The notes under the pieces were generated by a model, which had not been told where the DNA came from, did no database searches, and saw nothing but the letters and a program-made list of their open reading frames with translations. From an uncultured bacterium (lineage in GTDB: Bacteria; Fidelibacterota; Fidelibacteria; Fidelibacterales; Fidelibacteraceae), in the NCBI GenBank assembly GCA_964535585.1, contig CAZHTR010000002.1, forward strand, positions 77,169-141,168: a stretch of DNA of 64,000 nt. The letters run 5' to 3'. How positions within the stretch are numbered: position 1 is the stretch's first letter; each line of letters opens with the position of its first letter. Made by a program: the position numbers and the translations under genes. Below are positions 40,687-60,617 of the stretch, in pieces.

Positions 40687-40697
40687 GCGCGGATCAT

Positions 40698-43187: not shown

Positions 43188-46187
43188 ATGAAGAAGCTTG
43201 TTGTGGCCGTATTGGCTATTCTGATGGTTTTTCCCGCATGTGTTTATGCACAGGCAACGGGGAAGATTGTCGGAGTAGTGACGGACGTCAAGACAAACCA
43301 ACCTTTGGCCGGAACCAACGTTTTAATTGAGGGAACGGTCATGGGAGCCGCGGCGGATGCCGACGGTGTGTTTATCATCTTGAATGTCCCTGTTGGAACC
43401 TACGATGTTTCCGCATCGATCATCTCACACAAGAAACTCACGGTTCAGGAAGTACGTGTGCTTTCGGGTGTGACGACAGACCTTAGCTTCCAGTTGGAAG
43501 AATCCGTGATACGCGGACAGGAAGTGACGGTTGTCGCCGAGCGCAGATTGTTCGAAAAAAGCGTGACATCCAGTGTTTCTCTGGCAACATCCGATGAACT
43601 GGAAAATATGCCGGTTCGCGGTGTGGGAAATGTCATTTCCAACATGGCGGGCGTGATCACCCAGGATGGGTCCGTTCACGTTCGCGGTGGTCGTCCTCAC
43701 GAAGTAAAATTTCTTGTGGGTGGTGTTTCGACATCCTTGCCCACGACGAATGTGAACGTGATGACGATCATTCACGAAGCCATTGAAGAGATCCAGGTTT
43801 TTGCCGGCGGATACACCGCCGATATGGGAAATGCAAATGCCGGTATCGTGAAAACCGAGATCAAGGGCGGAACTCAGAACCTTAAAGGATCCCTTGAATT
43901 CCGTACGGACGGATTCCGCGACCCCGCATTGGGGAAAAGGGTCCTTGGCACTTACAACTACGGACACAATGCGGTTGTTGCCACTATCGGCGGACCGATC
44001 AGCGAAAAGGTCAAATTCTTTATTGCCGGTCAGTATGAGAACCGCAAAGACTCAGAAGTCCGTTTCAGCGAGGGTTTTGCTTTCGAAGGGAAGGTGAACA
44101 ACAACCCGAATGATCCGACGAACAAAGATACGGTTGATCTGGTCTATCCGGACGGATTCACACCAAACACCAGTGATATGACCTACGCGATCAATGCATC
44201 GCTCACCATGGACTTCCCGACACGTATCCGTATCGATGTCCTGCATGATTTTTCAAAATACGATCGTGTCTATAACGCGCCCCCCATGCTCAACACCTTG
44301 AGAGAGCGCACATATTATTATACGTCACCTACGACTTTGGTCACCGCAAAAGCAACAAAATTACTCTCTCCGACATCCTTTGTTGACTTGAAAGCAAGTT
44401 ATTTCCGTTATGCCCGCGAATTGAATGATCCGTATTTCGGGAACGACTGGACCAAATGGTACGACAGCACAGCCGTATACGAAGCCACGGACGGTGAAGT
44501 GGTTTACAGAAATGCATGGAGACCGAAACACAACTACGTCATCAACGGTTTCCCGATCCAACCCAAGGGCACTCCACTTAATGTTTATGCAAACGATGAA
44601 CAATTATACTGGGGATTGAATCTCGATTATGTCAATCAGGTCAATCGTCATCATGAGATCAAGGCCGGAGCGGATTTTAAACGCTATACCGTTCGCCGCT
44701 ATGTTGTCAGTCCCTCGGCGATGATCTACTCCGCGGAACCCGGCACGGTCGAAGGGTGGACAACCTACGGCAGCCTGGAAAATGTTCCAATGGATATCTG
44801 GATATTCAACGCCGGCGTGGATGCGTACGGATTTGATGCTTACGGCAATAAAACAAAAGGTGGAACGGAATATGCCGACGGAACCTACATCGATGCACCC
44901 AAGCACCCCCTGGAATTTGCCGCTTTCTTAATGGATAAGATCGAATACAACGATCTTATTATCAATGCGGGTCTGCGTTTTGATTATTTTGACACGGATG
45001 ACCGTGAGCTGGTCGACCCCGCAAATCCGGCAGTCAATCAGACCACCGGTATGCTTGCGGATACGGCATGGATCAAAAAAGCGCCTACCCTGCACATCAG
45101 TCCCCGCATCGGGTTTTCATTCCCGGTCGACGATAAGACCGTATTTTATCTGAACTATGGTCAATTTGTTCAGATGCCGCAATTGAGTGAGGCTTACTTC
45201 AGTTCCTATACCTATGCACGCCAGATCGTACGTCAGGGATACTATTTCCTCAATCCTGTCGGCTTTGGTCTGGACCCTCTGCATACAACATCCTATGAGG
45301 TGGGTTTCCGTCGCGAGATCAGTGATATCGCCGCATTTGACCTGACCGCATTTTATAAGAACGTCAAGGGTCTCATAGAAGTATTCAAACAGCTTCCCAC
45401 TCCCGGATCAACCATTCCGGGCTACTATGACCGGTTCGCCAACGGCGACTTTGCTACGCAGAAAGGTGTAGAGTTGCGCGTGAACATGCGCCGGACAAAT
45501 CGTATAGCGGGAAGCATCAACTATACGCTGACCTTCGCGGAAGGCACCGCTTCGAACAGTACATCTGCACACGGCGCGCTGTATACCAACACCATTATGC
45601 CGTCAACGATCAATCCGCTTGATTTCTCACAGATGCATACGGGCGCGATCAATCTTGATTATCGTTTCGGTGATAAGGACGGCGGTCCGATACTGCAGAA
45701 CATGGGTGCAAATCTTTTGATCAGCTTTTCCAGCGGACATCCGTTTACCCTGGTCACCGTTCCGGTCGGAGGCCAGGCGGATCCCTACACTGCAGGTATA
45801 GACTATATGCAGGATACGCGAAGCCGTATAGCTGTTGAACCCCTTGGTTCATCAAAAACACCCTGGCAGTTCTATGCTGACCTGCGTGTTGATAAATCTT
45901 TCATACTCGGTGGTATGAATGCAAATGTGTTTGTTACGGTTACGAACCTCTTTAACCGTAAGAACGTGATCAATGTTTACGAATTAACCGGAAACGCGGC
46001 CGATGACGGGTTCCTGTCAGATCCCGTACGTTCGGGAGCGAATGTTGCAAATAATGGCGGCGATGAATACATTGATATGTATACAGCAATCAACCTTGTC
46101 AACGGCCAGGCTTACTGGGATCGTATCGGCAGAGAACTGTATGGCACACCCCGTCAGATCAACGTTGGTTTCCGTCTGTCATTTTAA
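43188..46187 (+). CDS. TonB-dependent-receptor-like outer-membrane protein with an N-terminal CarboxypepD_reg domain (cassette 1)
   Basis: Signal peptide present. GKIVGVVTDVKTNQPLAGTNVLIEGT...VGTYDV; plug region VHVRGGRPHEV; barrel ending RLSF. Confidence 0.8.
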   Translation: MKKLVVAVLAILMVFPACVYAQATGKIVGVVTDVKTNQPLAGTNVLIEGTVMGAAADADGVFIILNVPVGTYDVSASIISHKKLTVQEVRVLSGVTTDLSFQLEESVIRGQEVTVVAERRLFEKSVTSSVSLATSDELENMPVRGVGNVISNMAGVITQDGSVHVRGGRPHEVKFLVGGVSTSLPTTNVNVMTIIHEAIEEIQVFAGGYTADMGNANAGIVKTEIKGGTQNLKGSLEFRTDGFRDPALGKRVLGTYNYGHNAVVATIGGPISEKVKFFIAGQYENRKDSEVRFSEGFAFEGKVNNNPNDPTNKDTVDLVYPDGFTPNTSDMTYAINASLTMDFPTRIRIDVLHDFSKYDRVYNAPPMLNTLRERTYYYTSPTTLVTAKATKLLSPTSFVDLKASYFRYARELNDPYFGNDWTKWYDSTAVYEATDGEVVYRNAWRPKHNYVINGFPIQPKGTPLNVYANDEQLYWGLNLDYVNQVNRHHEIKAGADFKRYTVRRYVVSPSAMIYSAEPGTVEGWTTYGSLENVPMDIWIFNAGVDAYGFDAYGNKTKGGTEYADGTYIDAPKHPLEFAAFLMDKIEYNDLIINAGLRFDYFDTDDRELVDPANPAVNQTTGMLADTAWIKKAPTLHISPRIGFSFPVDDKTVFYLNYGQFVQMPQLSEAYFSSYTYARQIVRQGYYFLNPVGFGLDPLHTTSYEVGFRREISDIAAFDLTAFYKNVKGLIEVFKQLPTPGSTIPGYYDRFANGDFATQKGVELRVNMRRTNRIAGSINYTLTFAEGTASNSTSAHGALYTNTIMPSTINPLDFSQMHTGAINLDYRFGDKDGGPILQNMGANLLISFSSGHPFTLVTVPVGGQADPYTAGIDYMQDTRSRIAVEPLGSSKTPWQFYADLRVDKSFILGGMNANVFVTVTNLFNRKNVINVYELTGNAADDGFLSDPVRSGANVANNGGDEYIDMYTAINLVNGQAYWDRIGRELYGTPRQINVGFRLSF

Positions 46188-46219
46188 CATTGATGAAACG
46201 TATAGTTAAGGAGTCAATA

Positions 46220-49200
46220 ATGAAGAAAATAATTATTTGCGTTATGCTTGCCGCCTTTCTCTTTGCGGTTGGCCTGACCGCTAAACCATTAGACGGTCAG
46301 CCCTTGCAAAAAAGTGCGGCAACAACAGCAGGCCAGGTTACCCGAACCTTGTCAAACCTGTCAAACTGGAGCTACTGGACGTATTATAACGGTCAGTCAG
46401 CACAAGCCCCCAACGGGAACTCCGGCGGTATTTATCCGCGAGGAACTGCCGGTGCCATCTTTCAGGATGGTTTTATCTGGGGCGGAAAAGTAGATACCAC
46501 CGGAAATAATGTGGGTGACCACATTCGTGTGGGCGGCCAGACCTATAACATCGGTACCGTTCCCGGAAGAGTGATCACCGGCGGAAATCCCAAAGGGACA
46601 TCCTGGCAAATTGCCGATCCCTCAGACCCGAGAGTACGCGTTTACCGGATCCGCCCGGATTACGAAAGTCTGACCCATGCCATGCTGGTTCAGGATGCTG
46701 CGGAACAGAATATGATCGACGCCAGTAGCGTTACGGAAGCCATGACACAAGAGATCATAGACCAGTATGCCCTCGACTGGGAAGAATGGCCGGTCGAATG
46801 GGGCGCACCCTATTATGATCTGGATGATGACGGCACCTGGACACCCGGCGTGGATGAACCCGGAATTGCACAGGCCGATCAGGTCGTATGGTATGTGGTG
46901 AACGACTACAGTCCTTCGGCAACAAACAGCTTATATGGTTCGCCGCCTATCGGACTTGAACTCCAGACGACCCTTTGGTCTTATAATCAGCCCGGTGTAC
47001 GACTTGGACAGATCATATTTAAATCTTACAAACTCATCAACAAATCCGGCCGGGCCATCACGGATATGTATGTGTCACAATGGTCGGACCCGGACCTTGG
47101 AACCTATTCCAATGACTTTGCCGGTTGCGATACGGTTTTAAGTCTGGGTTTTGCCTACAACGGGGAAGCCACGGATGCGGACTATGCCGCTTTCGACCTG
47201 CCGCCCGCGGCTATTGGATACGACTTTTTCCAGGGACCGATGGTGTCGAGTCCCGGAGACACGGCGATCTTTGAATTGAAATACGTTGCCGATCATAAGA
47301 ATCTTCCAATGACCTCTTTCGGATGGTTTGCGGCCGGTTCAGCCATCTCCGATCCGGAGTTGGGCGAATATATCGGAACACTGCAGTTCTATAACCTGAT
47401 CCGCGGATATGTGCCGACCGAAGACATAGCCAGTCCAAGCCCCTGGTATATCGGGAACAACAGCGCAAACGCCACGACCATGTTCCCGCTTTCCGGTGAT
47501 CCTGTCGCAAATACAGGCGATCTTGACGGACAGAATAATTACTTCCCGCCGGGTGACCGTCGTATCTGCCTTTCTTCCGGACCGTTCACGTTTGCTCCGG
47601 ATGATGTTCAGGAGATCGTGGTTGCCGTTGTCGGAGGTATGGGGAACACGCACCTGGGTTCGGTCACGGATCTGAAAATGACAGATGCCGTTGCGCAACA
47701 GCTTTTTGACGGATTGTTCCTTGAGGTTCCCAAACCGCCTGCAACCCCGAATGTTACCGTACGTCCTTTTGAGAACACGATCGTTCTTGAATGGGGAAGT
47801 GATGCGGCACGCGTTGCCCTGATCGAAGAAACAGAGGTATCCGGGTATGAATTTGAAGGCTATAATGTCTATCAGTTGCCGCACGGAGCCGCCAGCAAAG
47901 ATCAGGCCAAGCGTCTTGCAACCTTTGATATTGAAAACGATATTAAAGTGATCTATGAACACCGGAATCCCGCTGCTTTCGAAGGTATGGCAGTCGAAGT
48001 CCCCATCATTTACGGTACCGATTCCGGGATCCAGCGTTACCTGATCATAGATTGGGATCATATCAACAATAAACCCCTGTATGAGGGCTCGACCTATTAT
48101 TTCGCAGTGACCGCTTACAACCAGAACCACGATGAAGGAAGATTGGCCGAAAAAGCAATGGAGTCGCCGCTAATTGCATTAAGTGTTACATTGCAGGAAC
48201 CGCTTCCGGGAGTCGGACTGAATACCGAGGTCGGCAGTGAAGTCGAAGTTGAACACACCGCCGGCGCAAGCGGCGGACAGGTTCAGGTAAAGGTCGTTGA
48301 TCCATTCGCGATAACCGGTCACGACTACAGCGTTACTTTCTCTTGGAATGAAGATTCAACCGCGATCCTTTTTAATGTTATCGACGTGACCGACGGTGTT
48401 ACCCTGAGCAGCGGTAATTCCCAGGTCGTGAGCCTGAGCGACAAAGCCGGTGCACCCATTGTGGACGGACTGGAGATCAAGGTTTCGGGTCCCCCCGCGG
48501 GTGTGAAGGAAGTTGTTCAGATGGATGCTCCCGACGGAAACATTATTAAGAATTTGTTCTGGGCGCTCAACTGGATCGGTGACGGATCACAGCCCTGGCA
48601 CCGGGAAGCGGGAGCCCCTGCTTTTTATGTTGATTCCCCGCTTGGTGAAATCAATGGAGAGTTTGGTGATGCGACGTTCGACCGTTTCCACAACTGGGGT
48701 ACCTCCGATTTTGAAGTGGTCTTCGGTGATTCTTCCATTGGATGGAGCTACCTCAATGATGTGGTTCTGGACGAGAAGCTTCCCTTCGCGATCTATAAGT
48801 ATGATGTGGACGGGACCGTTCGCCGCATGTTCATTGCGATCTATGACGGCGAAGTTACCGGTACCGACGGAACCTGGGATCAGGGCCGCGGAGCAGCATT
48901 CAGCACCACCGGCGCATATGAGCGTATTTATGCGTATGACAACTCCGGAACCGGCTATCAGGTTGCCGACGAAGCAGCGTACATAGCAGCGGATGATATC
49001 TATGAGGCACCCTCCAGCACCGGCTGGGGCAGCCCTGACAACCCCTACGGTTATCCGCAAATGAACAACCTTATTATTGCGATGTATCCGGATGCGGTCG
49101 TCGGTCCGCCGGCAAACGGTTCGGTGATCCGCTTCAACACACATAAACCGATCGATGTGGATGATGTATTCACATTCTCAACCGCCGGACTTGATCCGAC

Positions 49201-49549
49201 AAGCAATGATTCCCTGATGGCAGTAGCGATCGAAAAGATCAATGTTTTCCCGAATCCTTATTATGCATACAACGAACAGGCAACATCGCCCTATGATCAA
49301 TATGTGACCTTTACCCATTTACCGGCAAAAGCCACGATAAAGATCTTCAACCTGGCGGGTGTCCTGGTTAAGACGGTTGAACATAATAATCCCACGTCCC
49401 AGTTCGCAAAATGGGATCTGACCAATGCCTCCAATATCCCGGTCGGAAGTGGAATGTATATTGCACATATCAATATGCCGGATGTGGGTGAGCAGAAGAT
49501 CCTGAAATTCATGATCATTCAGAGTAAACAAATTCTGGAATTCTATTGA
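46220..49549 (+). CDS. Large secreted protein (1109 aa) with an FN3-like domain and a T9SS-type C-terminal domain (cassette 1 cargo)
   Basis: ATG at 46220 sits behind AAGGAG, and a signal peptide is present. The C-terminal domain is INVFPNPYY...ATIKIFNLAGVLVKTV...GMYIAHI. It is a paralog of 56252..59527. Confidence 0.7.
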   Translation: MKKIIICVMLAAFLFAVGLTAKPLDGQPLQKSAATTAGQVTRTLSNLSNWSYWTYYNGQSAQAPNGNSGGIYPRGTAGAIFQDGFIWGGKVDTTGNNVGDHIRVGGQTYNIGTVPGRVITGGNPKGTSWQIADPSDPRVRVYRIRPDYESLTHAMLVQDAAEQNMIDASSVTEAMTQEIIDQYALDWEEWPVEWGAPYYDLDDDGTWTPGVDEPGIAQADQVVWYVVNDYSPSATNSLYGSPPIGLELQTTLWSYNQPGVRLGQIIFKSYKLINKSGRAITDMYVSQWSDPDLGTYSNDFAGCDTVLSLGFAYNGEATDADYAAFDLPPAAIGYDFFQGPMVSSPGDTAIFELKYVADHKNLPMTSFGWFAAGSAISDPELGEYIGTLQFYNLIRGYVPTEDIASPSPWYIGNNSANATTMFPLSGDPVANTGDLDGQNNYFPPGDRRICLSSGPFTFAPDDVQEIVVAVVGGMGNTHLGSVTDLKMTDAVAQQLFDGLFLEVPKPPATPNVTVRPFENTIVLEWGSDAARVALIEETEVSGYEFEGYNVYQLPHGAASKDQAKRLATFDIENDIKVIYEHRNPAAFEGMAVEVPIIYGTDSGIQRYLIIDWDHINNKPLYEGSTYYFAVTAYNQNHDEGRLAEKAMESPLIALSVTLQEPLPGVGLNTEVGSEVEVEHTAGASGGQVQVKVVDPFAITGHDYSVTFSWNEDSTAILFNVIDVTDGVTLSSGNSQVVSLSDKAGAPIVDGLEIKVSGPPAGVKEVVQMDAPDGNIIKNLFWALNWIGDGSQPWHREAGAPAFYVDSPLGEINGEFGDATFDRFHNWGTSDFEVVFGDSSIGWSYLNDVVLDEKLPFAIYKYDVDGTVRRMFIAIYDGEVTGTDGTWDQGRGAAFSTTGAYERIYAYDNSGTGYQVADEAAYIAADDIYEAPSSTGWGSPDNPYGYPQMNNLIIAMYPDAVVGPPANGSVIRFNTHKPIDVDDVFTFSTAGLDPTSNDSLMAVAIEKINVFPNPYYAYNEQATSPYDQYVTFTHLPAKATIKIFNLAGVLVKTVEHNNPTSQFAKWDLTNASNIPVGSGMYIAHINMPDVGEQKILKFMIIQSKQILEFY

Positions 49550-49585
49550 TGCCACATGGGAAAAAAATCACAATAAAGGAGTGTT

Positions 49586-50614
49586 ATGATGAAATATCAC
49601 AATAAATTCATGTCGCTTGTCCTGATCATGGCCCTGGTTGTTACTGTGGCTTACGCAGGGGATGTTGACCGCGCCGGAACAACCGCCGGTGTTCAGGTAC
49701 AGATCCCGGTCGGTGGCCGCAGCCTGGGTATGAGCGGATCCGATATCGCATACACCACAGGCGTGGATGCGATGTATTGGAATCCGGCAGGATTGAGCGC
49801 TTTCGATGGCCGGGTGGATGCAATGTTCTCCTCGGCAAAAAACATTGCCGAGATCGGTAATAACTTTTTCGGCATTGCCTTTAATACCGGGCAGTCCGGT
49901 GTTATCGGTATCAGCATGAAAGCACTGTCATTCGGAGAAATCCCCATTACCACCGTTCAGGATATGGATGGCGACGGGGGCGCAACCTATTCTCCCTCAT
50001 TCAGCGTGATAGGCGCAAGCTATGCAAGAAAACTGACTGACAGGATCAATGTCGGTCTGACCGCAAAACTGATCTATGAGAGTGTTCCGCGGGCAAGTGC
50101 AACATCACTTGCGTTCGATTTTGGTATACAGTATAAGGACCTCATAGAGATCAAAGGCTTGTCGCTTGGTCTTGCTATCCGGAATATCGGTACAAATATG
50201 GAATACACCGGAACCGGATTGCTGGTTTCCGCACGCCAGGTGGGTGAAACGTATAATGATTACCTCTACCATCCGACATCCTCCGACCAGTTACCGGCCA
50301 GCCTTGAAATGGGATTATCCTTCAAGCCGACGGATATGCTGATGTTAAGTGCCGTATATCAGAACAGTAACACCGAAACGGATTATCTTCGTGTCGGTAC
50401 GGAACTTAATTTCGCGAACATCGGATTTGTCCGTGCGGGATATGCCTTCCAACTGGATGGCGGATCCGAACTCGGCAACAGTGTGTACGGTCTGACCCTG
50501 GGCGCAGGCGTAAAATTCCAGATAAACCAAACGAATATCTGTGTTGATTATGTCTATCGTCCGGCACAACTGCTTGGCAATGAGAATCTCATTTGTTTGG
50601 GTGTCGGACTCTGA
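49586..50614 (+). CDS. PorV/PorQ-family outer-membrane beta-barrel (cassette 1)
   Basis: AGTTAGVQVQIPVGGRSLGMSGSDIAYTTGVDAMYWNPAGLSAF fits the PorV/PorQ N-terminal signature (FL.I..gaRa..mGga....D..a..WNPAGL). Confidence 0.7.
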   Translation: MMKYHNKFMSLVLIMALVVTVAYAGDVDRAGTTAGVQVQIPVGGRSLGMSGSDIAYTTGVDAMYWNPAGLSAFDGRVDAMFSSAKNIAEIGNNFFGIAFNTGQSGVIGISMKALSFGEIPITTVQDMDGDGGATYSPSFSVIGASYARKLTDRINVGLTAKLIYESVPRASATSLAFDFGIQYKDLIEIKGLSLGLAIRNIGTNMEYTGTGLLVSARQVGETYNDYLYHPTSSDQLPASLEMGLSFKPTDMLMLSAVYQNSNTETDYLRVGTELNFANIGFVRAGYAFQLDGGSELGNSVYGLTLGAGVKFQINQTNICVDYVYRPAQLLGNENLICLGVGL

Positions 50615-50641
50615 TCCGATCAGGAACATTATGGATTTGTG

Positions 50642-50674
50642 CACCGTCCCGGATTGACCGGGACGGTGTTTTTT
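50642..50674 (+). terminator. Strong Rho-independent terminator closing cassette 1
   Basis: CACCGTCCCGG (50642-50652) pairs with CCGGGACGGTG (50658-50668) around the loop ATTGA, followed by T6. Confidence 0.85.
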
Positions 50675-50791
50675 ATACCTGTTTAAAAAACAAATAATCG
50701 AACAAACAGCCAGAAATAAAGGTTTTATGCGCTTTTTTTCTTGGATGGCTGTAAAAATACGTGTATTTTCATATTCACAGGGAGAAATTTT

Positions 50792-51241: not shown

Positions 51242-51259
51242 AATATATTGGAGGTTATC

Positions 51260-53296
51260 ATGAAGCGTATTGTTATTGCATTATGTGCAGTGCTGTTCGT
51301 ATCGGGATTGTTCGCACAGAAAGTCGCAAGCATCCCGGTCACTCACAGAGACCGCTATGAACGCATGGAAAAGGGCACCGGGCAAGAACTTTTCACCTAC
51401 CAACTGTCCAAGACAACGGCAAAATCCGCATCATCGTATGATCCGGAATTTACGGCTGTTTTGATCGATTCGAGTAAAAACGGATATGGTATGGTTTCCG
51501 GTGTAACAAATCCCATTTCCCACAGCGGAGAGACTTTTGTTATGGCTTACCGTCAATGGATCGGCGTTAACGCGTCGGCCGGTGCGATCGGTATGGCCTA
51601 CAGTCTAGACGGCGGAGAAAGCTGGACAAATGCCACCAACGTTAATGCTGAATTACCCGGGGTTACGGAAGGGCGTTATCCTTCGGCCATCGGTGCCGGT
51701 GACTATCCCTTTATCGCCTGGAGCGAATATACCGGCGTGGGATCAGGGATCGAAAACGATGCGAAACCCCTGTATGCCATGGATCAGCTTGGTTTTGGCG
51801 GCGGGTGGTTGTCCTCTCCGCAGTATATCGGATCAAACGCCACCAATCCGGAAGGTATGTGGATGGGTTGTCCGAACTATTCCGAAGATGCCTCAGGGAA
51901 TGGATTTATCAACATGACCTTCAGCACATGGCGGGAATTCGATGCGAACCAAATCGGCAGCAGAAATATCTATTTGTTCCGCACGACCAGTATGAGCGAA
52001 GGAAGCCTAACCTGGGCTCCCGCAGTTAAAATACTCGACTCAAGAACATATTTTGAACCGGGTTCGTCCAGCGGCTCAACCACGTCAGACGCCTTGATAT
52101 CGATCGCGGACAACGGGATCGGATATGTCGCCAATGTCGCTTACTGGAATGACAGCTACAGTGTGGATAATAATGCATATCACACCTTTAAATTCCGGAA
52201 AACAAGCGATCACGGCGCAACCTGGAGCGAAGAATCTTTTGATGATGATGTTCCCTACTACTTTATCCCGGACAATGTGTTCGATGACAATATTTTTGAC
52301 ATCTTTATTCCCAGTCAGATCTTTGAAGTCGTATACGGAACGGATACCGTAACCGTGGATGAACTAACCGGTGAAGAAGACACGGTCCTTGATGTCATGA
52401 ATTTTCCGGGTCTGTTCATCGGATATGATAATGAAATGATCGTTGATCAAAACGGCGGCGTACACATTATGTGTCTTGTGATCCCGGAATCGGAAGAATC
52501 CGGATATATTATGCCTACGGTACATCACGGATGCGGTTTTTATCATCTCTACTGCGCCGATCCCACACAGGAAGACGCCGAATGGAAAGTCAATTTCGTA
52601 ACCAGCATGCAGAACACCTGGCGCTTTAACTATCACAACAGCACCCGGGCATGGCAGAGCTTTTTCCCCAGCATGGCAACGTCCATTGAGGATCCGAACA
52701 TTATTTATGCCGTGTATCCGAAAGGGAACATCTATGAAGAAGACGGCTTGCTTTATATGAAAAGCTATGACATTTACGTCAGCCGTTCCTCCGACGCCGG
52801 TGTGACCTGGCAGGAAGAGATCAATGTTACGAATACGGATGATTTCGACGAGATCACGGCACATGCCGATCCGGACGCGACCAACGACAAGGTATATCTC
52901 GTTTATCAGGTTCCGGATTATTCGACCCTGACGGTTAATGAAGATGAGACTCCTGAGGATTATAAGAACCGCGTGTATTTCATGGCGGTCACACATCCTT
53001 ACAGCAGTGTGGAGCCGGTGGTTCAGATACCTGCCGCTTTTGAGCTTAAGCAGAACTATCCGAACCCCTTTAACCCTGTGACAAAGATCGAATATGACAT
53101 TCATCATGCAGGAGAATATCGTCTTGATGTTTACAATACGCTGGGTCAAAAAGTAACGACATTGTTCAGCGGATACAAAGAAAGCGGATATCATCATATT
53201 GATTTTGATGGTTCGCTGCTTCCTTCCGGTATCTATTTTTATTCGCTGACCGGCAATAATACGACACGTACGTTAAAATCAGTATTGCTAAAATAA
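51260..53296 (+). CDS. BNR/Asp-box repeat (sialidase-fold-like) secreted protein with a T9SS C-terminal sorting domain
   Basis: Asp-boxes SLDGGESW, SDHGATW and SSDAGVTW. The C-terminus is NYPNPFNPVTKIEY...KSVLLK. Confidence 0.75.
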   Translation: MKRIVIALCAVLFVSGLFAQKVASIPVTHRDRYERMEKGTGQELFTYQLSKTTAKSASSYDPEFTAVLIDSSKNGYGMVSGVTNPISHSGETFVMAYRQWIGVNASAGAIGMAYSLDGGESWTNATNVNAELPGVTEGRYPSAIGAGDYPFIAWSEYTGVGSGIENDAKPLYAMDQLGFGGGWLSSPQYIGSNATNPEGMWMGCPNYSEDASGNGFINMTFSTWREFDANQIGSRNIYLFRTTSMSEGSLTWAPAVKILDSRTYFEPGSSSGSTTSDALISIADNGIGYVANVAYWNDSYSVDNNAYHTFKFRKTSDHGATWSEESFDDDVPYYFIPDNVFDDNIFDIFIPSQIFEVVYGTDTVTVDELTGEEDTVLDVMNFPGLFIGYDNEMIVDQNGGVHIMCLVIPESEESGYIMPTVHHGCGFYHLYCADPTQEDAEWKVNFVTSMQNTWRFNYHNSTRAWQSFFPSMATSIEDPNIIYAVYPKGNIYEEDGLLYMKSYDIYVSRSSDAGVTWQEEINVTNTDDFDEITAHADPDATNDKVYLVYQVPDYSTLTVNEDETPEDYKNRVYFMAVTHPYSSVEPVVQIPAAFELKQNYPNPFNPVTKIEYDIHHAGEYRLDVYNTLGQKVTTLFSGYKESGYHHIDFDGSLLPSGIYFYSLTGNNTTRTLKSVLLK

Positions 53297-53357
53297 ACGA
53301 TAAACATAAAGAGCAGACACCCCGTTCATCGGGGTGCCTGCCGTTTAAGGGGTTTGT

Positions 53358-56240
53358 ATGAAAAAAGGTTATATCCTTTTTGTAATTTGTTTCATCATTA
53401 CGGGTATTGCCCATGCCGATATTATCGGTACGATCCGTGGAAGTGTTACAGATGCCGCAACAGGGGACGCTCTCACGGGGGTCAATATTATGATCGAAGG
53501 CACACGGACAGGCACCTTTACCGACAATGCCGGATATTACAGTATTATCAATCTGCCGATCGGTGAATACTCTGTTTCCTTTACCATGATCGGTTACAAA
53601 AAGGTTATTCAGCATAATGTGCGGGTAATGCGAGATCAATCTACGATCATCAATGTGTTCATGGAGGTCGAAGCGGTTCTCGGAGAGATCGTGGAGGTCG
53701 TTGCGGAGCGCCCCTCAGTGGAAAAGGATGTGATCGGACGAAAGATCACCATGGAAGCCGAGCAGGTTGTCAATTTGCCGGTCAGGGATATGACGGAGAT
53801 CTATACCCTGCAGTCCGGTATTATCGAGATCAAAACGGCAGACCTGGGCATTCCCGGTTTTGAGGAACGCGGCATCGAGCAGATCCATGTGCGTGGCGGG
53901 CGTGCCAACGAAACGGGATTTATGATCGACGGCCTGTATATCGAAAATCCCATTTACGGAGGGAAAGGAAAAGGAACGCGCTTAAACCAGTTTGCGGTTT
54001 CTCAGGTTGACTTTCAGACCGGATTTTTCAATGCCGAATACGGGGACGCCATGTCGGGTATGATCAATACCGTTACCCGGACAGGTCCCGAAAAACTTAC
54101 CGGCGTTGTCCGGCTTGAACGCAGTAATTTTGGCGTGCTGTCCTCAGAACAGGACCAACTCAGGAACTATTCAAAGATCGCCGGCGGTTTTGGAGGTCCC
54201 TTATTTACCAAGAACATACGCTGGTGGACAAGTTTTGATCAGTCCAGGCAAGCATATGCCGTTTATGAATTTGATGATCTCGCTTTTGATATGAGCGATC
54301 CGTTAAGTGACTACAATACCAAGAATTTCATTAATCCTCTGGATACGATCCCCGGATGGCGGTCTTTCGGATTTGACAATACCTTCGATATCTTTAACAA
54401 ACTGAGCTTCATAATATCTCCCAAGATCCGGCTGAATCTCTCTCACTGGTATGTTACGTCCAATTATAAAGCATTTGACCCGGCGTATATATTTTATGAC
54501 CTGGGAAAAAATGAAGTTGAAAAAACATCTCAGCGCTATACGCTTGAATGGCGGCACCAGCTGAACGACAGAACCTTTTATACCTTCAATTATTCGGATT
54601 TTACGCAGGAAATGACGATGGGCGTCCGGAACTACGATTCCGACGGGGACGGATATCCCGACTGGGTGGAACAGCGTTATTTTGCGGATTTTTATGACAG
54701 TACGAAAGTTCCGCGCATTGACGGTATCCCTCTGGAATATGTCATCTCAGGAACAGATACGATCTGGAAGCTGGGTGATGAACTGGCGGAATGGCTTACG
54801 CCGGAACAGTATAATCAACCCTATACTTACTACCCCTTCGTTTTTGGTTACAGGAACGAGGATATCATTGTCCGGTATCAGAACAGCCCGAACCTCTTGC
54901 GGTATTACGGAGAATTTTACTATAGTGGCGCCGACCGCTACCATCACTATACCCGGTCAAGGACCCGGGAATACAAATTCGATATCACCTCACAAGTGCA
55001 CAGACATCATCAGATAAAGACGGGTATCGACTATAAAACGCACGATATTACCTTTGATGAGATCCAGTTGCCATGGCTTTCGACTCCCTATACCGAGAAA
55101 TACGATCGCCGTCCTCAGGAATTTGCAGGGTATATACAAGATAAGATAGAATATCCCTGGATGGTCATCAATGCCGGTTTGCGTTTTGATGCTTCCAATT
55201 CACGTGATTCCATGTGGGCGGATCCCCGGGTTCCCGATACAACACTGCATCCCACCACCTGGGAATTTCTATGGAGCCCGCGTCTTGGGTTCTCGCATGT
55301 AATAACCGAAAAGTCCACATTTACCTTCGGGTACGGTATCTATTATCAGAACCCCACCTACCGTGATGTGTATAACAACATTGACAAGCGTGCGAACATG
55401 GATGAATTCTTTAATACCCCGATGCCGCTTGTAGGAAACCCCTCTGTCAGCGCACAAAAAGTGACAAGCTATGAGTTTGGTTTCAATACGGAAGTAATGA
55501 ATGATTATGTGCTTGGTGTCGTTGGTTGGTCTAAAGATTACAGTAATATGAATTCAACCGAACAGGTTCGCGTGGGCTCGGTGAGGTATACAACATTTGT
55601 GAATTACGATTATGGTTCCGCGCGCGGAATTGACCTTATCTTCGAAAAACGGCGCGGTCGTTTCTTCACCGGAAATCTGCAATATACCTATTCGGTTGCC
55701 ATGGGGAACCGTTCCGACCCCTGGGCGGGTTACCGGAATTCCGAAGACCCCCTGACCATGCCGAAAACCGAAGTACTGCAGGAATACGACAGGACACATG
55801 ATTTTAGTGCCCAGATGACGATTCGCATGCCCAAGGGATACGGTATCCCGCTGGGAGCGTATCATCTTTTCCAGAATACCATGACCAACATTACGCTTAT
55901 TGCCATTTCGGGCGCGCCCTATACCCCGATCCTTTTGAACGATAAGGCGGGCCCCGTTAACAGTGAGCGCATGCCCCCGATCTTTACCGCCAACATGGCA
56001 TTCAGAAAATATATCAATGTACTGGGTGACAGTCGCATGGTTCTGGGGTTCGTGTGTACGAACATCTTCAATCGTAAAAACCCGGTCTATGTCTTTCCCC
56101 GGACCGGAGACCCGGAAAACCCGGGCGGGATAGATCAGCGCTATATCCAGGAAGGTCTCAGAAGTTCCACATTCTATGACAGACCGTGGCACTATGATGA
56201 CGCGCGCAGTATTGACTTCTTTGTTGAAGTTGAGTTTTAA
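53358..56240 (+). CDS. TonB-dependent-receptor-like outer-membrane protein with a CarboxypepD_reg domain (cassette 2)
   Basis: It parallels 43188..46187: GTIRGSVTDAATGDALTGVNIMIEGT, IHVRGGRANET, INAGLRFD, NIFNRKNPVYVF, and a C-terminal VEF. Confidence 0.8.
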   Translation: MKKGYILFVICFIITGIAHADIIGTIRGSVTDAATGDALTGVNIMIEGTRTGTFTDNAGYYSIINLPIGEYSVSFTMIGYKKVIQHNVRVMRDQSTIINVFMEVEAVLGEIVEVVAERPSVEKDVIGRKITMEAEQVVNLPVRDMTEIYTLQSGIIEIKTADLGIPGFEERGIEQIHVRGGRANETGFMIDGLYIENPIYGGKGKGTRLNQFAVSQVDFQTGFFNAEYGDAMSGMINTVTRTGPEKLTGVVRLERSNFGVLSSEQDQLRNYSKIAGGFGGPLFTKNIRWWTSFDQSRQAYAVYEFDDLAFDMSDPLSDYNTKNFINPLDTIPGWRSFGFDNTFDIFNKLSFIISPKIRLNLSHWYVTSNYKAFDPAYIFYDLGKNEVEKTSQRYTLEWRHQLNDRTFYTFNYSDFTQEMTMGVRNYDSDGDGYPDWVEQRYFADFYDSTKVPRIDGIPLEYVISGTDTIWKLGDELAEWLTPEQYNQPYTYYPFVFGYRNEDIIVRYQNSPNLLRYYGEFYYSGADRYHHYTRSRTREYKFDITSQVHRHHQIKTGIDYKTHDITFDEIQLPWLSTPYTEKYDRRPQEFAGYIQDKIEYPWMVINAGLRFDASNSRDSMWADPRVPDTTLHPTTWEFLWSPRLGFSHVITEKSTFTFGYGIYYQNPTYRDVYNNIDKRANMDEFFNTPMPLVGNPSVSAQKVTSYEFGFNTEVMNDYVLGVVGWSKDYSNMNSTEQVRVGSVRYTTFVNYDYGSARGIDLIFEKRRGRFFTGNLQYTYSVAMGNRSDPWAGYRNSEDPLTMPKTEVLQEYDRTHDFSAQMTIRMPKGYGIPLGAYHLFQNTMTNITLIAISGAPYTPILLNDKAGPVNSERMPPIFTANMAFRKYINVLGDSRMVLGFVCTNIFNRKNPVYVFPRTGDPENPGGIDQRYIQEGLRSSTFYDRPWHYDDARSIDFFVEVEF

Positions 56241-56251
56241 GGAGTTTATTC

Positions 56252-59200
56252 ATGAAATATATACAACGCATCGGATGTTTACTTTTACCCGTTTTGCTTC
56301 TTGCGATACCGCTTGATGAGGTTAAGCCAAAGACGGTTTTATCCAAACAAACATCCTCAAATCCCCTTCTGGAGCGCGCAAAGAGCTATGCGGACCAGGG
56401 TAAATTAAAAACGGCCATTTTGAACTACGGTAATTTTGTTGATCATTGGCAAGGTGATGTTGCAGGAGCCTGGGGCGAATATCAGTGGCTTGCCAATGTT
56501 TCCTTTATGCTGGGTGTGCCGGGAAAAGATAAAGACGGCGACCCCTATCCCTGGGCGATGCGCCCCCATCCGGACAATCCAGATTCGATCATTTACTGGG
56601 GACCGAGCGTTTCGGAATCCTGGCTTGACAGAACATCCAACCAGATCAATACTGACTGGGATGTGGTCTTGGGATCGAAAGGAAGAACCTATTCCGGCGA
56701 GATCACGGCAGGTGATTATGTGGGAGGTGTCTGGACGGACGAAAACGATACCTGGCCGCTATTGGCAACATCCATCGTTCCCGAATCCTGGCCGGTGCGC
56801 GTTGACGAATTTGGCGAAGAAGAACGATTCTGGCCCGGCTGGTTCGCTACCGATACGGATCCCTCTTCACCAACGTACCTGCAAGAGGTCCCCGGGCGTT
56901 TTGTTTCCGATGTGGATATCTATCTGGAATTTGATGATCGCTTTGCCGATCGTGAACCCGTATCTCGATTTACGGGGTACCCTACAGGCAGTAAGGTGCT
57001 GGCCACCGTGCATTCCTACGGACGTGCCTACGCGGAAGATATTATTTTTGTAACAATGAAGGTTGTTAACGAAAGTGATAAATATGGCTTGAACGGCGGT
57101 CTGGGATATGATTATGAAGATGTATATTTCGGATTTTATTTCGATGCCGACATGTTCAGTTCCTTTTATTACGGAGGATATCGTCCCTGTAATACGAACG
57201 ACGGCGATATGATGGGATACAACACAGAATATAACTATGCGTATATTTACGACCTGACGGGCACGGAATGCGGTGGAGCATATGAGTTCAACGCATATGC
57301 CGCCGTTAAGCTTCTGGATACGCCGACCGCCAGCGATACGGTGTGGCTGGATGATTTGAACTATGTTGCGCCGGGCGAAGAACTGGGTCTGACGGACTGG
57401 CATTGGTTCGACTGGTATAACCGTCCCGGTGTGGTTGACAAAGAAGGGTCCGGAGGCCCGTTTGTGGGAGACGCGAGAACACCTGAGTCTCCCAAAAAAG
57501 AACAATTAATGTATCAGCTCATGTCGGGCGATACGACAGGATTAAGTGAAAAAGAATGGCAGTGGTATTTCCATCGCGACACCAGAGGAAACCTGAACCC
57601 CCATTTTGACAGCATGGAAGGACTTCTTGCGCAATTCCCCGATGGTTTGGACTGCGTATGCATGATGTCCTCCGGCCCCTTTACTTTTGCGGTCGGTGAT
57701 ACGGCCATGTTCTCCTTTGCGATCATCATGGGTGAGGACATTCCCGACCTGAACCGGAACGCGAACATGGCACAGATCATGTATGACCTCCGCTATCAGG
57801 GTTTTTCCGCGCCACAGGCACCAACGGTATCGGCGATCACGGAGTGGGACCCCGAAACCCAGCGCGCCGCCGTTCGGCTTGTCTGGGATGACGCGGCCGA
57901 ATATTCCCGGGATATTGTAACCGGATATGCCGATTTTCAGGGTTACCGGGTCTATAAATCAACTGATGGCGGTAAAAGCTGGGGTACAAAGATCTTTGAT
58001 ATCAATCAGACCCATGCCGGCTGGAAGCCGATCGCACAGTATGACCTGAGCCTGGAACAGGATCTTGCACGTTACGGCAGAGATATTTCGGGTCCCGACC
58101 CCCTGGCTCCCTGGTTCAGTCTGGGCGAAAATACCGGGTTGCGACATGAATACCTCGATACGGATGTGCAGCTGGGCAAGGAATACACATATTCCGTGAC
58201 TGCGTATGATATCGGCATGGAACCCGGCTTTACCATTGAAGTATACAGTGAAGAGATCACAGATCCCGTTTCGGGGTTTACCTATGAGGTAATACGGTAC
58301 GATACGACTTGGTCGCAAACCAATACGAGCAGTCAGTGGGCATATTATTCCCTTGAAAGCCTTGAAAGCCCGAAAGGTACCACGCCACAGTCTCCGCAGT
58401 TTATCAAAGTCACCCCAACCAGGACCCCGGTGGACCTGAAGGGTAAAATTGACCTTATCCCGGGACCGAACACCATAGGGAATACGGAAACAAAGATAAG
58501 GATCACAGATCCCGCAAAAGTAAAAGAACATCAATACAAGATCGCAATATCCGCAAGTTCTGCACTTTCAACCTATGGTCCCTATATAAGATACCCGAAG
58601 TATTCCGTTATCAACATGAATACCGGAGACACACTGATCAACAAACACACGAACAGTGACCTTGATCCCAATTCCAAAGTACATTACCGTCCGATCTTTG
58701 ATGGTCTCCAGGTGATTTTTTCCAATCTGGAACGTGCCGCGATCAAGAATGTCTATTGGGCTTCCGATCAGAAATATGTGTCGGCACATGCCAGATCGAC
58801 ACTGCCATACCCGCCTTCAGCCGATTACGCTGTCATTTTCGGTGCGCTCGATGAAGTATTGGATACGGTCTTCTGGCGGCTTCCCACACCGGCGAACAGA
58901 GTGGGTGTCCCCTTTAAGGCGATCAAACTTCCTTCCGGAGAACGTGTTGAACTGTTGGTCATGGAACATGTTAACAGCAGGGACGGGATCCTGAACTATA
59001 TGGACGAGATCGCTTTCCGCGAATCAAATGTTCCCGGACAGCCGCCGGCAAATTTTGTTCAGACCTGGCAGATACGGTTCGAATGGGACACTCTTTTGGT
59101 TGCAAAGGATGAATATCCCTTTGTCCCGGGAGACACGCTTTTTGTTTATACGAACAAGCCGCTGCATAACGGAGACGAATATACCTTTACCGCTGCGGAT

Positions 59201-59527
59201 TATCGACAGGAAGTGGAGGTCACGGAAGAAGAGCTTGCGGAAATCAGGGTTGTTCCCAATCCTTACATTGTTTCCGCGCAATGGGAACAGAGCCAGTATA
59301 CGAAAAAGCTGTTGTTCATGAACTTACCGTCCGAATGTACGATCACGATCTTCACCCTGACGGGAGAATATGTCAACACGATCGTCCATAACAATCCCTA
59401 CGATAATTCGGCGGCCTGGAATTTAACCACGATCAACCGTCAGGAAGTTGCCCCGGGTCTGTATGTATTTACAGTTGAAATGCCCAACGGCAAAAAACAT
59501 GTCGGCAAATTTGCAATTATTCGATAA
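56252..59527 (+). CDS. Large secreted protein (1091 aa) with an FN3-like domain and a T9SS-type C-terminal domain (cassette 2 cargo)
   Basis: It shares SSGPFTFA, Y.Y.VTAYD/N and the C-terminal domain IRVVPNPYI...CTITIFTLTGEYVNTI...GLYVFTV with 46220..49549. Confidence 0.7.
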   Translation: MKYIQRIGCLLLPVLLLAIPLDEVKPKTVLSKQTSSNPLLERAKSYADQGKLKTAILNYGNFVDHWQGDVAGAWGEYQWLANVSFMLGVPGKDKDGDPYPWAMRPHPDNPDSIIYWGPSVSESWLDRTSNQINTDWDVVLGSKGRTYSGEITAGDYVGGVWTDENDTWPLLATSIVPESWPVRVDEFGEEERFWPGWFATDTDPSSPTYLQEVPGRFVSDVDIYLEFDDRFADREPVSRFTGYPTGSKVLATVHSYGRAYAEDIIFVTMKVVNESDKYGLNGGLGYDYEDVYFGFYFDADMFSSFYYGGYRPCNTNDGDMMGYNTEYNYAYIYDLTGTECGGAYEFNAYAAVKLLDTPTASDTVWLDDLNYVAPGEELGLTDWHWFDWYNRPGVVDKEGSGGPFVGDARTPESPKKEQLMYQLMSGDTTGLSEKEWQWYFHRDTRGNLNPHFDSMEGLLAQFPDGLDCVCMMSSGPFTFAVGDTAMFSFAIIMGEDIPDLNRNANMAQIMYDLRYQGFSAPQAPTVSAITEWDPETQRAAVRLVWDDAAEYSRDIVTGYADFQGYRVYKSTDGGKSWGTKIFDINQTHAGWKPIAQYDLSLEQDLARYGRDISGPDPLAPWFSLGENTGLRHEYLDTDVQLGKEYTYSVTAYDIGMEPGFTIEVYSEEITDPVSGFTYEVIRYDTTWSQTNTSSQWAYYSLESLESPKGTTPQSPQFIKVTPTRTPVDLKGKIDLIPGPNTIGNTETKIRITDPAKVKEHQYKIAISASSALSTYGPYIRYPKYSVINMNTGDTLINKHTNSDLDPNSKVHYRPIFDGLQVIFSNLERAAIKNVYWASDQKYVSAHARSTLPYPPSADYAVIFGALDEVLDTVFWRLPTPANRVGVPFKAIKLPSGERVELLVMEHVNSRDGILNYMDEIAFRESNVPGQPPANFVQTWQIRFEWDTLLVAKDEYPFVPGDTLFVYTNKPLHNGDEYTFTAADYRQEVEVTEEELAEIRVVPNPYIVSAQWEQSQYTKKLLFMNLPSECTITIFTLTGEYVNTIVHNNPYDNSAAWNLTTINRQEVAPGLYVFTVEMPNGKKHVGKFAIIR

Positions 59528-59539
59528 AGGAGAGCGCAA

Positions 59540-60583
59540 ATGCATTTTATGAAGCGTTCATTCATTATAACACTGATCTTACTATTCACCGCTGCCGGTT
59601 TCGCACAGACCGATATCCCGGAAGATATCTCAAAGGTAGCGACACGTGCGGGACAATTCCTGAAAATGGAAGTCGGCGCTAAGGCCGCTTCGCTGGGCGG
59701 TGCGCATGTTGCCGGTGTTAACGACCTGTCGGCGCTGGCCTGGAATCCTGCCGGACTTGCGCATATTTCCCAGCAGAGTTTTTACGGGACATATACATCC
59801 CTGTACGCAGGGATCCAGCATGGATTTGTTGCTTACGGTACAAAGATCTCACATTCGGATTATCTGGGTGCAAGTGTTACCTATCTCAATTCCGGAGAAA
59901 TGGAAGTAACAAGCCTTCGGTTCCCTGACGGATCCGGAGAGTTCTTCTATGTCAGCAACCTTGCGGTGGGATTGTCCTATGCGCGCAAACTGACCGATCG
60001 TCTGAGTATCGGAGCAACCGCCAAATTCGTTCACGAGACCATTTGGCGCGAGAAGGCTTCCGCCTTCGGATTTGATATCGGCTCGCAGTTCGATACCGGT
60101 ATCAAGGGTATCCACCTCGGCATGGCGATCACAAATTTCAGTACAAAAATGAAATTTGACGGACCCGATCTGAATATAGATGTCGATACTGATCCGACCT
60201 ACGAAGGCAATCCGGATACTCCCGCCCGGCTGAATACGCTGGAATGGTCCCTGCCGCTTGTGTTCAGGCTGGGCATCATGGCCGATGTCATGGGTCCGCG
60301 AAGCGAATTGATCCAGAATCAGAAGCACAGGGTCACAGTCTATTTCGATGGAAATGATCCGTTGGACAATGTTCTGCGTTTCAATACGGGTGTTGAATAT
60401 TCCTTTCAGGAAATACTTGCTTTACGTGCCGGATATCACCTAAATTACGATACAGCAAATTTTTCTGCCGGTGTCGGCCTGAATTTGGAGTTGAACAACA
60501 TGCCGTTGAACATTGATTATGCTATTGTCAGTTACGGTATATTAGGATTTGTGAATCAAGTGAGCATCCAAATAGGATTATAA
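59540..60583 (+). CDS. PorV/PorQ-family outer-membrane beta-barrel (cassette 2)
   Basis: TRAGQFLKMEVGAKAASLGGAHVAGVNDLSALAWNPAGLAHI. SYARKLTDRLSIGATAKFVHET parallels SYARKLTDRINVGLTAKLIYES in the cassette 1 copy. Confidence 0.75.
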   Translation: MHFMKRSFIITLILLFTAAGFAQTDIPEDISKVATRAGQFLKMEVGAKAASLGGAHVAGVNDLSALAWNPAGLAHISQQSFYGTYTSLYAGIQHGFVAYGTKISHSDYLGASVTYLNSGEMEVTSLRFPDGSGEFFYVSNLAVGLSYARKLTDRLSIGATAKFVHETIWREKASAFGFDIGSQFDTGIKGIHLGMAITNFSTKMKFDGPDLNIDVDTDPTYEGNPDTPARLNTLEWSLPLVFRLGIMADVMGPRSELIQNQKHRVTVYFDGNDPLDNVLRFNTGVEYSFQEILALRAGYHLNYDTANFSAGVGLNLELNNMPLNIDYAIVSYGILGFVNQVSIQIGL

Positions 60584-60617
60584 ATAATAAAAAATGAAAC
60601 CTTTGAAAGGAGAACAC

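Follow-up and report, generated by a model that had tools for sequence, protein, structure and literature searches.

We analysed a 64,000-nt stretch of DNA from an uncultured bacterium of the Fidelibacteraceae (contig CAZHTR010000002.1, positions 77,169 to 141,168), hereafter the window, which carries two related cassettes of surface-protein genes. Each cassette encodes, in this order, a TonB-dependent receptor, a secreted protein of roughly 1100 aa that we call the cargo, and an outer-membrane barrel of the PorV/PorQ family. Cassette A comprises receptor A (43188..46187, 999 aa; open reading frame (ORF) call and Pfam), cargo A (46190..49549, 1119 aa when counted from TTG; ORF call) and barrel A (49586..50614, 342 aa; model NF033709). 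Cassette B comprises receptor B (53358..56240, 960 aa; Pfam, BLASTP and motifs), cargo B (56252..59527, 1091 aa, recognised with a hidden Markov model (HMM) of its C-terminal domain (CTD), which is specialised and has no aromatic tail) and barrel B (59540..60583, 347 aa; NF033709, Pfam PorV and PDB). The six genes are co-oriented on the + strand, with gaps of 2 and 36 bp in cassette A and 11 and 12 bp in cassette B. Signal peptides for the Sec pathway are visible in the sequences of the cassette proteins, and the consensus of homologues places the start of cargo A probably at the ATG at 46220 (M11).

A first-pass annotation of this DNA had proposed two such triplets, and the ORFs lie on the + strand exactly as it claimed, tightly spaced. 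Its description of a three-gene cassette is right as far as the triplet goes, but cassette B has a co-oriented fourth gene that it omitted. This gene (60594..63482, +) starts 10 bp past barrel B and encodes a secreted protein of 962 aa with a canonical type-A CTD (PF18962 46.1 bits, TIGR04183 39.8 bits), besides which searches of Pfam, NCBIfam and PDB sequences recognised no domain. The same annotation took every member of one cassette to be a paralogue of its counterpart in the other, which pairwise BLASTP supports throughout: the receptors align over their full length at 24% identity (E 3e-53), the barrels at 28% (E 2e-37), and the cargos at 34% across their C-terminal 139 aa (E 1e-19), with a second cargo alignment of 22% across ~650 aa (E 5e-10). 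Each of the peptide motifs it quoted is present in the protein for which it was named.

Receptor, barrel and cargo families

Both receptors have CarboxypepD_reg and Plug domains according to Pfam. In receptor A, PF13620, PF13715, PF07715 and PF00593 all score above cut-off, and its layout is a signal peptide, a CarboxypepD_reg N-terminal extension, a TonB-box-like motif, the Plug and a 22-strand-type barrel. The Plug match (PF07715) reaches 32.9 bits in receptor A and 24.0 bits in receptor B against a gathering cut-off of 23.9. The barrel match (PF00593) reaches 77.3 bits against 27 in receptor A; receptor B has no Pfam match here, yet it aligns with receptor A along its full length. The TonB-box-like motifs, which we identified by eye, lie at residues ~111–118 (QEVTVVAE in A, EIVEVVAE in B), and both proteins end in Phe (...RLSF and ...VEVEF).

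This architecture of N-terminal extension, Plug and barrel is common to SusC and to the Oar subclass of receptors. The SusC/RagA model TIGR04056 gives only 38.4 and 41.6 bits against a cut-off of 368.25, with the match confined to the N-terminal extension, and by sequence we place the receptors outside the SusC family. Nor is a SusD/RagB-family lipoprotein encoded downstream of them: the downstream genes have no Pfam hit and no lipobox.

The small barrels had been described in the first-pass annotation as PorV/PorQ-like, as opposed to unrelated porins, and this holds. Both pass the PorV/PorQ family model NF033709 (141.0 bits for barrel A and 197.9 for barrel B, cut-off 90), PorV of Flavobacterium johnsoniae is a PDB match for both (6h3i_F; E 1.9e-6 and 1.7e-9), and barrel B also matches Pfam PorV (42.9 bits, cut-off 27). 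PorV, PorQ and PorV2, components of type IX secretion systems (T9SS), have equivalog models of their own (NF033710, NF033711 and NF052325), for which the best scores here are 85, 97 and 83 bits against 250, 220 and 325. Judged by these profile scores, the barrels are additional paralogues and not the core T9SS components PorV, PorQ or PorV2.

Cargo A is laid out as a Sec signal peptide, a ~470-aa N-terminal domain containing a beta-supersandwich, Fn3/Ig-like middle domains and a specialised CTD. Besides the CTD, neither cargo has a Pfam match, a PDB sequence match or an NCBIfam functional domain. The AlphaFold2 (AF2) model of cargo A has a pLDDT of 77.5 and a C-terminal beta-sandwich, and the N-terminal domain as seen with AF2 and Foldseek (residues 48–520; 46331..47749, +) gives a pLDDT of 92.4 and a pTM of 0.92 when modelled alone. 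For this domain Foldseek finds partial matches (TMq 0.25–0.35, probability ~1.0) to the N-terminal beta-sandwich domains of the glycoside hydrolase (GH) families GH116, GH94, GH149 and GH63 and of dextran dextrinase, which are presumably the non-catalytic N-terminal sandwiches of those enzymes. The invariant residues of the cargos are mostly Asp, Asn, Gly, Trp and Tyr, and the homologue consensus shows no triad of invariant His, Cys or Ser. We read the cargo, from its predicted structure, as a putative surface binding protein with a glycan-binding-like fold.

Two other identities for the cargo were considered and set aside. Naming it a glycosidase was rejected, as the models consist mostly of strands with few helices and have no room for an (alpha/alpha)6 catalytic domain. 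Homology to PorZ outside the CTD was dropped: whole-chain Foldseek searches with cargo A return low-TM multidomain matches, and PorZ (5m11), although at the top, has a TM of just 0.10–0.13.

The CTD of cargo A (49202..49546, +) has a PNPY motif, an insertion of ~13 residues past that motif, a beta-sandwich and a conserved tail. The claim that the large proteins are T9SS cargo stands in so far as this CTD is T9SS-like, but both proteins miss the curated CTD thresholds, and their export by the T9SS is a prediction. The type-A model TIGR04183 gives 21.3 bits for cargo A and 15.8 for cargo B (cut-off 23), PF18962 does not hit, and neither cargo matches the type-B models (PF13585/TIGR04131). When the window is searched with an HMM made from the CTDs of the cargo family, the only hits are cargo A at 186 bits and cargo B at 61 bits, and all three canonical CTD proteins are missed. 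In the reverse comparison, neither cargo exceeds 23 bits with an HMM derived from 30 canonical CTDs. The two kinds are nonetheless distantly related: starting from a canonical CTD, iterative searching picks up 80 of 88 cargo ORFs. These comparisons point to the cargo CTD being a distinct subclass and not canonical T9SS type A.

The three canonical-CTD proteins are a C10 peptidase, a BNR-like protein and the product of the fourth gene of cassette B, and an S8 subtilase at the end of the window is another. Such proteins in and beside the window imply that a T9SS exists in this organism; none of the T9SS core genes lies within the 64 kb.

Compared with all PDB chains, the cargo CTD profile matches the CTD of PorZ first (5m11, E 3.3e-4) and that of PorU second (6za2, E 0.013), while 8glk_D, the CTD chain of a PorV translocon-complex entry, has an E of 7.8. 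The NCBIfam PorZ model NF052228 is likewise the top match of both cargos, over the last ~90 positions (cargo A E 3.6e-9), with 35.6 and 18.1 bits against the 260 needed for a full-length match, which would take in two beta-propellers as well as the CTD. PorZ and PorU are T9SS proteins whose CTD is not removed and which are bound to PorQ and PorV, respectively (PMC10202324). The authors of that review speculate that cognate PorV-like beta-barrels shield the CTD from cleavage, and likewise for type-B CTDs with PorP/SprF (PMC10202324).

At its C-terminus, the CTD of cargo A and its class (class A, see below) has a tail, IIQ-x-x-Q-[I/F]-L-x-x-[Y/F], that is conserved across phyla; cargo A itself ends in ...IIQ-x-x-Q-I-L-E-F-Y (49520–49546). 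The last residue of the tail is always aromatic, and the tail is absent from class B. It is reminiscent of the beta-signal or a strand-insertion motif of outer-membrane proteins, in a region where AF2 confidence is low.

Conservation and module classes

We examined the 80 best loci of at least 572 confirmed relatives (one genome per species), scoring their ORFs with the window proteins. Of the candidates scored, 1331 are homologues of cargo A; the closest come from Candidatus Marinimicrobia (Fidelibacterota), and full-length relatives with ~43% identity occur in Caldithrix abyssi (Calab_2073); cargo B has 410 homologues. The best 80 loci come from Marinimicrobia, Calditrichota, Latescibacterota, KSB1, Ignavibacteria/Melioribacteraceae, Kryptoniota, a metagenome-assembled genome (MAG) of the Gemmatimonadaceae and assorted "Bacteroidota" MAGs. 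Among the hosts are the cultured Caldithrix abyssi and Melioribacter sp. Ez-97.

The complete receptor–cargo–barrel triplet is present in 67 of 84 loci and in at least seven lineages of the Fibrobacterota–Chlorobiota–Bacteroidota (FCB) group, with median gaps of 32 and 37 bp. Almost all loci with enough flanking sequence have the three genes on one strand in that order, and 76 cargo genes directly follow a receptor gene (median gap 32 bp). The synteny check across FCB genomes was thus positive, and the triplet is conserved well beyond this genome.

Three classes of module can be distinguished. Classes A and B each have their own lineage of receptor, cargo and barrel. In two Marinimicrobia loci (L006 and L007), triplet A is followed by a BNR-like gene and then by the receptor and cargo of class B, up to the end of the sequence. 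Cassette B is conserved in Caldithrix (L082), where the fourth gene is a match in position only, its product ending with the contig. Class C has a cargo of ~700 aa and is found in Marinimicrobia (L003:1887-9566 and L011:1751-9540) as a receptor, the cargo, a PorV-like barrel and a 550-aa protein with a canonical CTD. Its receptor scores weakly to receptor A, its barrel is closest to barrel B, and its cargo, from a family with 157 hits, carries the special CTD weakly. Immediately after the class C module, both of these loci also have a class A-type cargo without a receptor of its own.

Given that cassettes A and B are both conserved in Caldithrix, the A/B split predates the divergence of these phyla. 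In sequence terms the duplication is one of ancient paralogy, with no recent copy. A recent duplication or an assembly artefact was considered and rejected, as the paralogues are 24–34% identical and the two classes are separately conserved in Caldithrix.

The type of CTD varies together with the partner genes. All 70 of the cargo genes that have a barrel downstream carry the special CTD. Seven cargo paralogues have a canonical CTD instead (~100 bits or a PF18962 match; one in L073, two in L074, and P0262, P0280, P0057 and P0076), and all seven are without an upstream receptor and, wherever this can be assessed, without a downstream barrel. Naive Fisher tests of CTD type against partner genes give p = 6e-4 and 5e-6, the second from a table of approximate counts. 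The barrel may therefore be a cargo-specific partner, for which this co-varying CTD subclass, most like the CTDs of PorZ and PorU, gives indirect support.

Two of the canonical-CTD paralogues, P0076 (L088:215-6236) and P0262 (L085:4300-8411), are shortened members of the cargo family with type-A CTDs. Neither has a receptor or barrel beside it; the neighbouring genes encode further CTD proteins, two of them SASA (sialate O-acetylesterase-like) proteins.

Some loci hold more than the triplet. Calditrichaceae have tandem arrays of cargo paralogues (L066:1-12519, L083:10001-23375, L013 and L074): four cargos in a row in L066, and in the C. abyssi locus L083 a receptor–cargo–barrel set plus three further cargos of ~1110 aa. 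Most of the cargos in these arrays retain the special CTD. A GWxTD-domain protein (PF20094/TIGR04514, ~455–475 aa, with a Sec signal peptide) follows the barrel in 23 loci (e.g., L045:14467-15825, L020, L022, L028, L036, L054, L062 and L076) from Ignavibacteria/Melioribacter, Calditrichia, KSB1 and others, and there is none in the window. A DUF4397 protein is a neighbour in 10 loci. We found no literature on GWxTD, and the papers on DUF4397 were irrelevant.

A possible capture-and-import module

We infer the following from the gene anatomy, family memberships, conservation and co-varying CTD subclass described above. All cassette proteins would cross the inner membrane by Sec, after which the receptor and the 14-strand-type PorV/PorQ-family barrel would be inserted in the outer membrane. 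The cargo would be exported by the T9SS but would bypass the general PorV shuttle and clipping by the PorU sortase: its CTD would be caught by the adjacently encoded barrel and stay uncleaved, as PorZ does on PorQ and PorU on PorV. Because its CTD is held in this way, the cargo would be displayed non-covalently at the cell surface beside its cognate TonB-dependent transporter. There its N-terminal beta-sandwich domain, carried on Fn3/Ig-like spacers, could bind and perhaps process a polymer-derived substrate and hand it to the transporter, which would import it with TonB energy. We put the chance that the barrel anchors a T9SS-exported cargo by its uncleaved CTD beside the receptor, as a unit for capture and import, at slightly under even.

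A wider form of this proposal is that the modules make up a hitherto unrecognised class of nutrient-capture machine that spans phyla, consisting of a T9SS-exported binding protein, docked by an uncleaved CTD of the PorZ/PorU kind on its dedicated PorQ-like barrel, together with an Oar/SusC-type transporter. The cargo would then be a T9SS-anchored counterpart of SusD, and its CTD a third class ("anchor-to-barrel, receptor-linked") beside types A and B. We hold both parts of this wider form a little more tentatively than the proposal itself.

As to the substrate in this organism, the surroundings (described below) suggest proteinaceous or glycoprotein material. The hints are mixed: an Lrp/AsnC regulator, nearby S8 subtilases, and C10 and M32 peptidases point to proteinaceous or glycoprotein material; the sandwich fold, the BNR-like neighbour and a canonical-CTD paralogue beside SASA esterases hint at glycan.

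The module would resemble SusC/SusD or RagA/RagB, with the T9SS and a PorQ-like barrel as tether replacing the lipid anchor. In both cases the gene for a CarboxypepD_reg-type TonB-dependent transporter lies immediately upstream of that for a large surface partner, there are multiple diverged copies per genome, and the gene order of the module recurs inside polysaccharide loci (those of Rhodothermus marinus, see below). However, the putative partner here is not a SusD lipoprotein but a beta-rich protein of ~1100 aa that has a Sec signal peptide at one end and a T9SS-like CTD at the other, and the module has an obligatory third gene for a PorV/PorQ-family barrel. We had thought that the module might replace SusD in phyla that have none, and have softened this, as ordinary SusC/SusD pairs are reported in both Melioribacter roseus and R. 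marinus. Since these two organisms have such pairs as well, the module would supplement SusCD.

Other known systems are similar in part. PorQ–PorZ and PorV–PorU of Porphyromonas gingivalis also pair a barrel of this family with a T9SS-exported protein that has a CTD of the PorZ/PorU kind. Here, however, the barrels are not equivalogs, the CTD is all that the cargo has in common with PorZ, CTD retention is a supposition, and the pair shares an operon with a gene for a TonB-dependent receptor and comes in several classes within one genome. PorP/SprF with type-B cargo (SprB/SprF; PG1035/PorP) likewise combines a CTD subclass with an adjacent cognate PorV-like barrel, which is proposed to anchor the cargo at the surface (PMC10202324); our module differs in a CTD that is not of type B, a barrel assigned by its match to the PorV/PorQ model, and a receptor as part of the unit. 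The Oar protein of Myxococcus xanthus, which acts in PopC secretion, has the same CarboxypepD_reg extension, TonB box, Plug and barrel (PMC6434023). There is no T9SS in Myxococcus, neither a PorV-like barrel nor a CTD cargo adjoins Oar, and the direction of transport presumed for our module is import.

The closest published arrangement is in R. marinus. Its alginate locus has tonB, a T9SS sorting-domain protein, a PorV/PorQ family protein and a hypothetical protein beside alginate lyases (PMC9530828). In its xylan locus (Rmar_1070-1073), Rmar_1070 is a receptor predicted to be co-transcribed with Xyn10A, while Rmar_1071 and Rmar_1073 have Por sorting domains (PMC6987092). These loci, whose enzymes have been characterised, have the same gene order and annotation classes as our modules, with a fourth gene as in cassette B, although the R. 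marinus cargo is shorter (2181 nt) and the authors drew these genes as grey "hypothetical" arrows. By analogy of architecture alone, they would favour a nutritional role. A search with the class C cargo, aimed at the R. marinus "hypA", retrieved no Rhodothermus. Elsewhere, the legend of a figure of the Porphyromonas hmu cluster lists "T9SS", "porV/Q" and "pepS8" genes (PMC12106395), and a search for SAR406 TonB receptors in metaproteome papers gave nothing informative. We found no paper that interprets a module of receptor, T9SS cargo and PorV/PorQ barrel. While all of its parts are of known kinds, the combination of the three genes with a CTD subclass that marks it appears to be new.

Several observations weigh against an anchored capture-and-import unit. 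The special-CTD cargos of the tandem arrays (L066 and L083) adjoin one barrel or none, so the stoichiometry is unclear, and the model does not explain the GWxTD protein that follows the barrel in about a third of loci. No CAZyme (carbohydrate-active enzyme) or peptide-transport gene is a fixed partner of the module across loci. The CTD resembles those of PorZ and PorU weakly (24 and 19 bits), its co-variation with the partner genes rests on few canonical-CTD paralogues that are phylogenetically non-independent, and the N-terminal domain of the cargo has no ligand-binding assignment (Foldseek TMq at most 0.35). The link to R. marinus is one of architecture, with cargo homology unconfirmed.

There are four rival explanations. 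The barrel might be a cargo-specific T9SS helper or anchor and the cargo a surface enzyme or adhesin, with a receptor that is co-regulated but imports the products independently, so that the cargo would form no complex with it and have no lid-like role. Encoding a cognate PorV-like barrel beside a cargo is an established pattern (PMC10202324), and this explanation accommodates the co-variation of CTD type with the barrel, the tandem cargo arrays with a single barrel, and the further canonical-CTD proteins in the operons of cassette B and class C. We nevertheless consider it unlikely: the receptor is conserved and spaced as tightly as the barrel (76 cargo genes, 32 bp), canonical-CTD paralogues lose receptor and barrel together, and classes A and B have diversified as whole receptor–cargo–barrel sets. 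Alternatively, the cargo could itself be catalytic, the founder of a new glycan- or protein-degrading family, making the module a degrade-and-import unit. The resemblance of its N-terminal domain to domains of glycoside hydrolases and phosphorylases, the many residues of that domain that are invariant (Asp, Glu, Arg, Trp and Tyr) and the neighbouring secreted peptidases all agree with this, but the matched GH domains are the non-catalytic sandwiches of those enzymes, the models leave no space for an (alpha/alpha)6 domain, no enzyme family of Pfam, NCBIfam or the PDB matches, and the consensus has no invariant His, Cys or Ser triad. On balance an enzyme seems distinctly improbable.

A further alternative is non-nutritional: an Oar-type transporter might serve the export or assembly of some product, as Oar does for PopC in Myxococcus, or the three proteins might build a housekeeping structure at the surface. 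The Oar-subclass architecture of the receptor (PMC6434023), the very wide conservation, and the recurrence of the non-catabolic neighbours GWxTD (23 loci) and DUF4397 (10 loci) with no fixed catabolic genes would fit such a role. But a cargo with its own T9SS-type CTD and PorV-family partner needs no TonB-dependent exporter, substrate-specific uptake suits an Lrp-type regulator and a genome with several diverged classes better than a single housekeeping machine does, and the same gene order occurs inside the R. marinus alginate and xylan loci, so we rate a non-nutritional role lower still than an enzyme. Least probable is a role of the small barrel as a FadL-like channel that conducts a small or hydrophobic substrate and is unrelated to the cargo CTD. 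PorV has been described as a FadL homologue (PMC12578637), and barrel B scores 22.1 bits with Toluene_X/FadL; that is below the cut-off of 29.7, whereas for both barrels the PorV/PorQ model scores above cut-off and the PDB search finds PorV, and a FadL-like channel would leave the strict co-variation of barrel and CTD subclass unexplained.

Were the capture-and-import proposal true, it would matter in several ways. What is understood of polymer uptake in Marinimicrobia, Calditrichota, Ignavibacteria, Latescibacterota and KSB1 comes mainly from comparison with SusCD of Bacteroides, and there would be a defined uptake module to annotate in these phyla and to seek in their metatranscriptomes. The role of PorV-family barrels would extend from secretion shuttles to permanent anchors in nutrient acquisition. 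The CTD subclass would also predict the fate of a T9SS protein, i.e., whether it is released or linked to anionic lipopolysaccharide (A-LPS), or docked on a barrel. As the module is present in the cultured Caldithrix abyssi and Melioribacter sp., and its gene order in R. marinus loci, the hypothesis is directly testable.

Transcription units and neighbouring genes

Cassette A is preceded by an AT-rich leader of 187 bp (43000..43187, +), read directly from the sequence, with a ribosome-binding site, AAAGGAGG, immediately 5' of the receptor A ATG. A hairpin with a T-run at ~43000–43030 closes the upstream glycosyltransferase/epimerase genes. A scan for sigma-70 promoters found 29 against 29.6 expected from shuffles, and we claim no promoter. 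Downstream, a terminator-like hairpin (50641..50669, +; 12-bp stem, nine GC pairs, T-run) starts 27 bp after the barrel A stop codon and, being like an intrinsic terminator, marks the end of the cassette A transcription unit.

Two genes lie between the cassettes. The first encodes an Lrp/AsnC-type regulator (50741..51241, +; Pfam HTH_24/HTH_AsnC/AsnC_trans_reg), which occupies the same place in a Marinimicrobia locus (L084). The second encodes the BNR-like protein (51248..53296, +), which is secreted, 682 aa long and has a canonical type-A CTD; its BNR/Asp-box matches are weak and below threshold, and the gene is kept between the cassettes in related Marinimicrobia loci (L002, L006 and L007). 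A GC-rich hairpin with a 13-bp stem and no + strand T-run (53312–53342) separates it from receptor B. In the absence of this T-run, cassette B may be read through from upstream or may start at a promoter of its own. Past the fourth gene, the start of an S8 subtilase gene (63573..64000, +; FG-GAP repeats, T9SS CTD) runs beyond the end of the window. It is a neighbour of cassette B with possibly a functional link, and a subtilase of this type is also encoded directly upstream of the triplet in four Calditrichota loci.

The region 5' of cassette A (36284–43000, +) encodes glycosyltransferases of the GT2 and GT4 families, a membrane protein related to YfhO/PTPS and a D-glucuronyl C5-epimerase homologue (PF06662, E 6e-43), the last of which is also found upstream of the receptor in the Marinimicrobia locus L084. 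Two ORFs here (40698–42008 and 41897–43000) share 112 bp, so that one of the two start codons was probably called wrongly. These glycosyltransferases are biosynthetic and are split from cassette A by the terminator-like hairpin. Among the genes scanned in 37–64 kb there are no degradative CAZyme families, and with no SusD the locus is not a canonical polysaccharide utilisation locus, which is defined by SusC/SusD, CAZymes and a sensor/regulator.

Further upstream, the window encodes a C10 peptidase of the streptopain family (7435–9246, −) that combines an I69 inhibitor-like pro-region with a canonical T9SS CTD, as well as an M32 carboxypeptidase (17665–19200, +); the two fit a protein-degrading lifestyle. 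An island of low GC content (19412–25394, −; 35–39% GC vs ~50% elsewhere) holds genes for a restriction endonuclease of the MvaI/BcnI family, two C-5 cytosine DNA methylases and a HATPase_c_3 protein, and is probably a horizontally acquired restriction-modification island.

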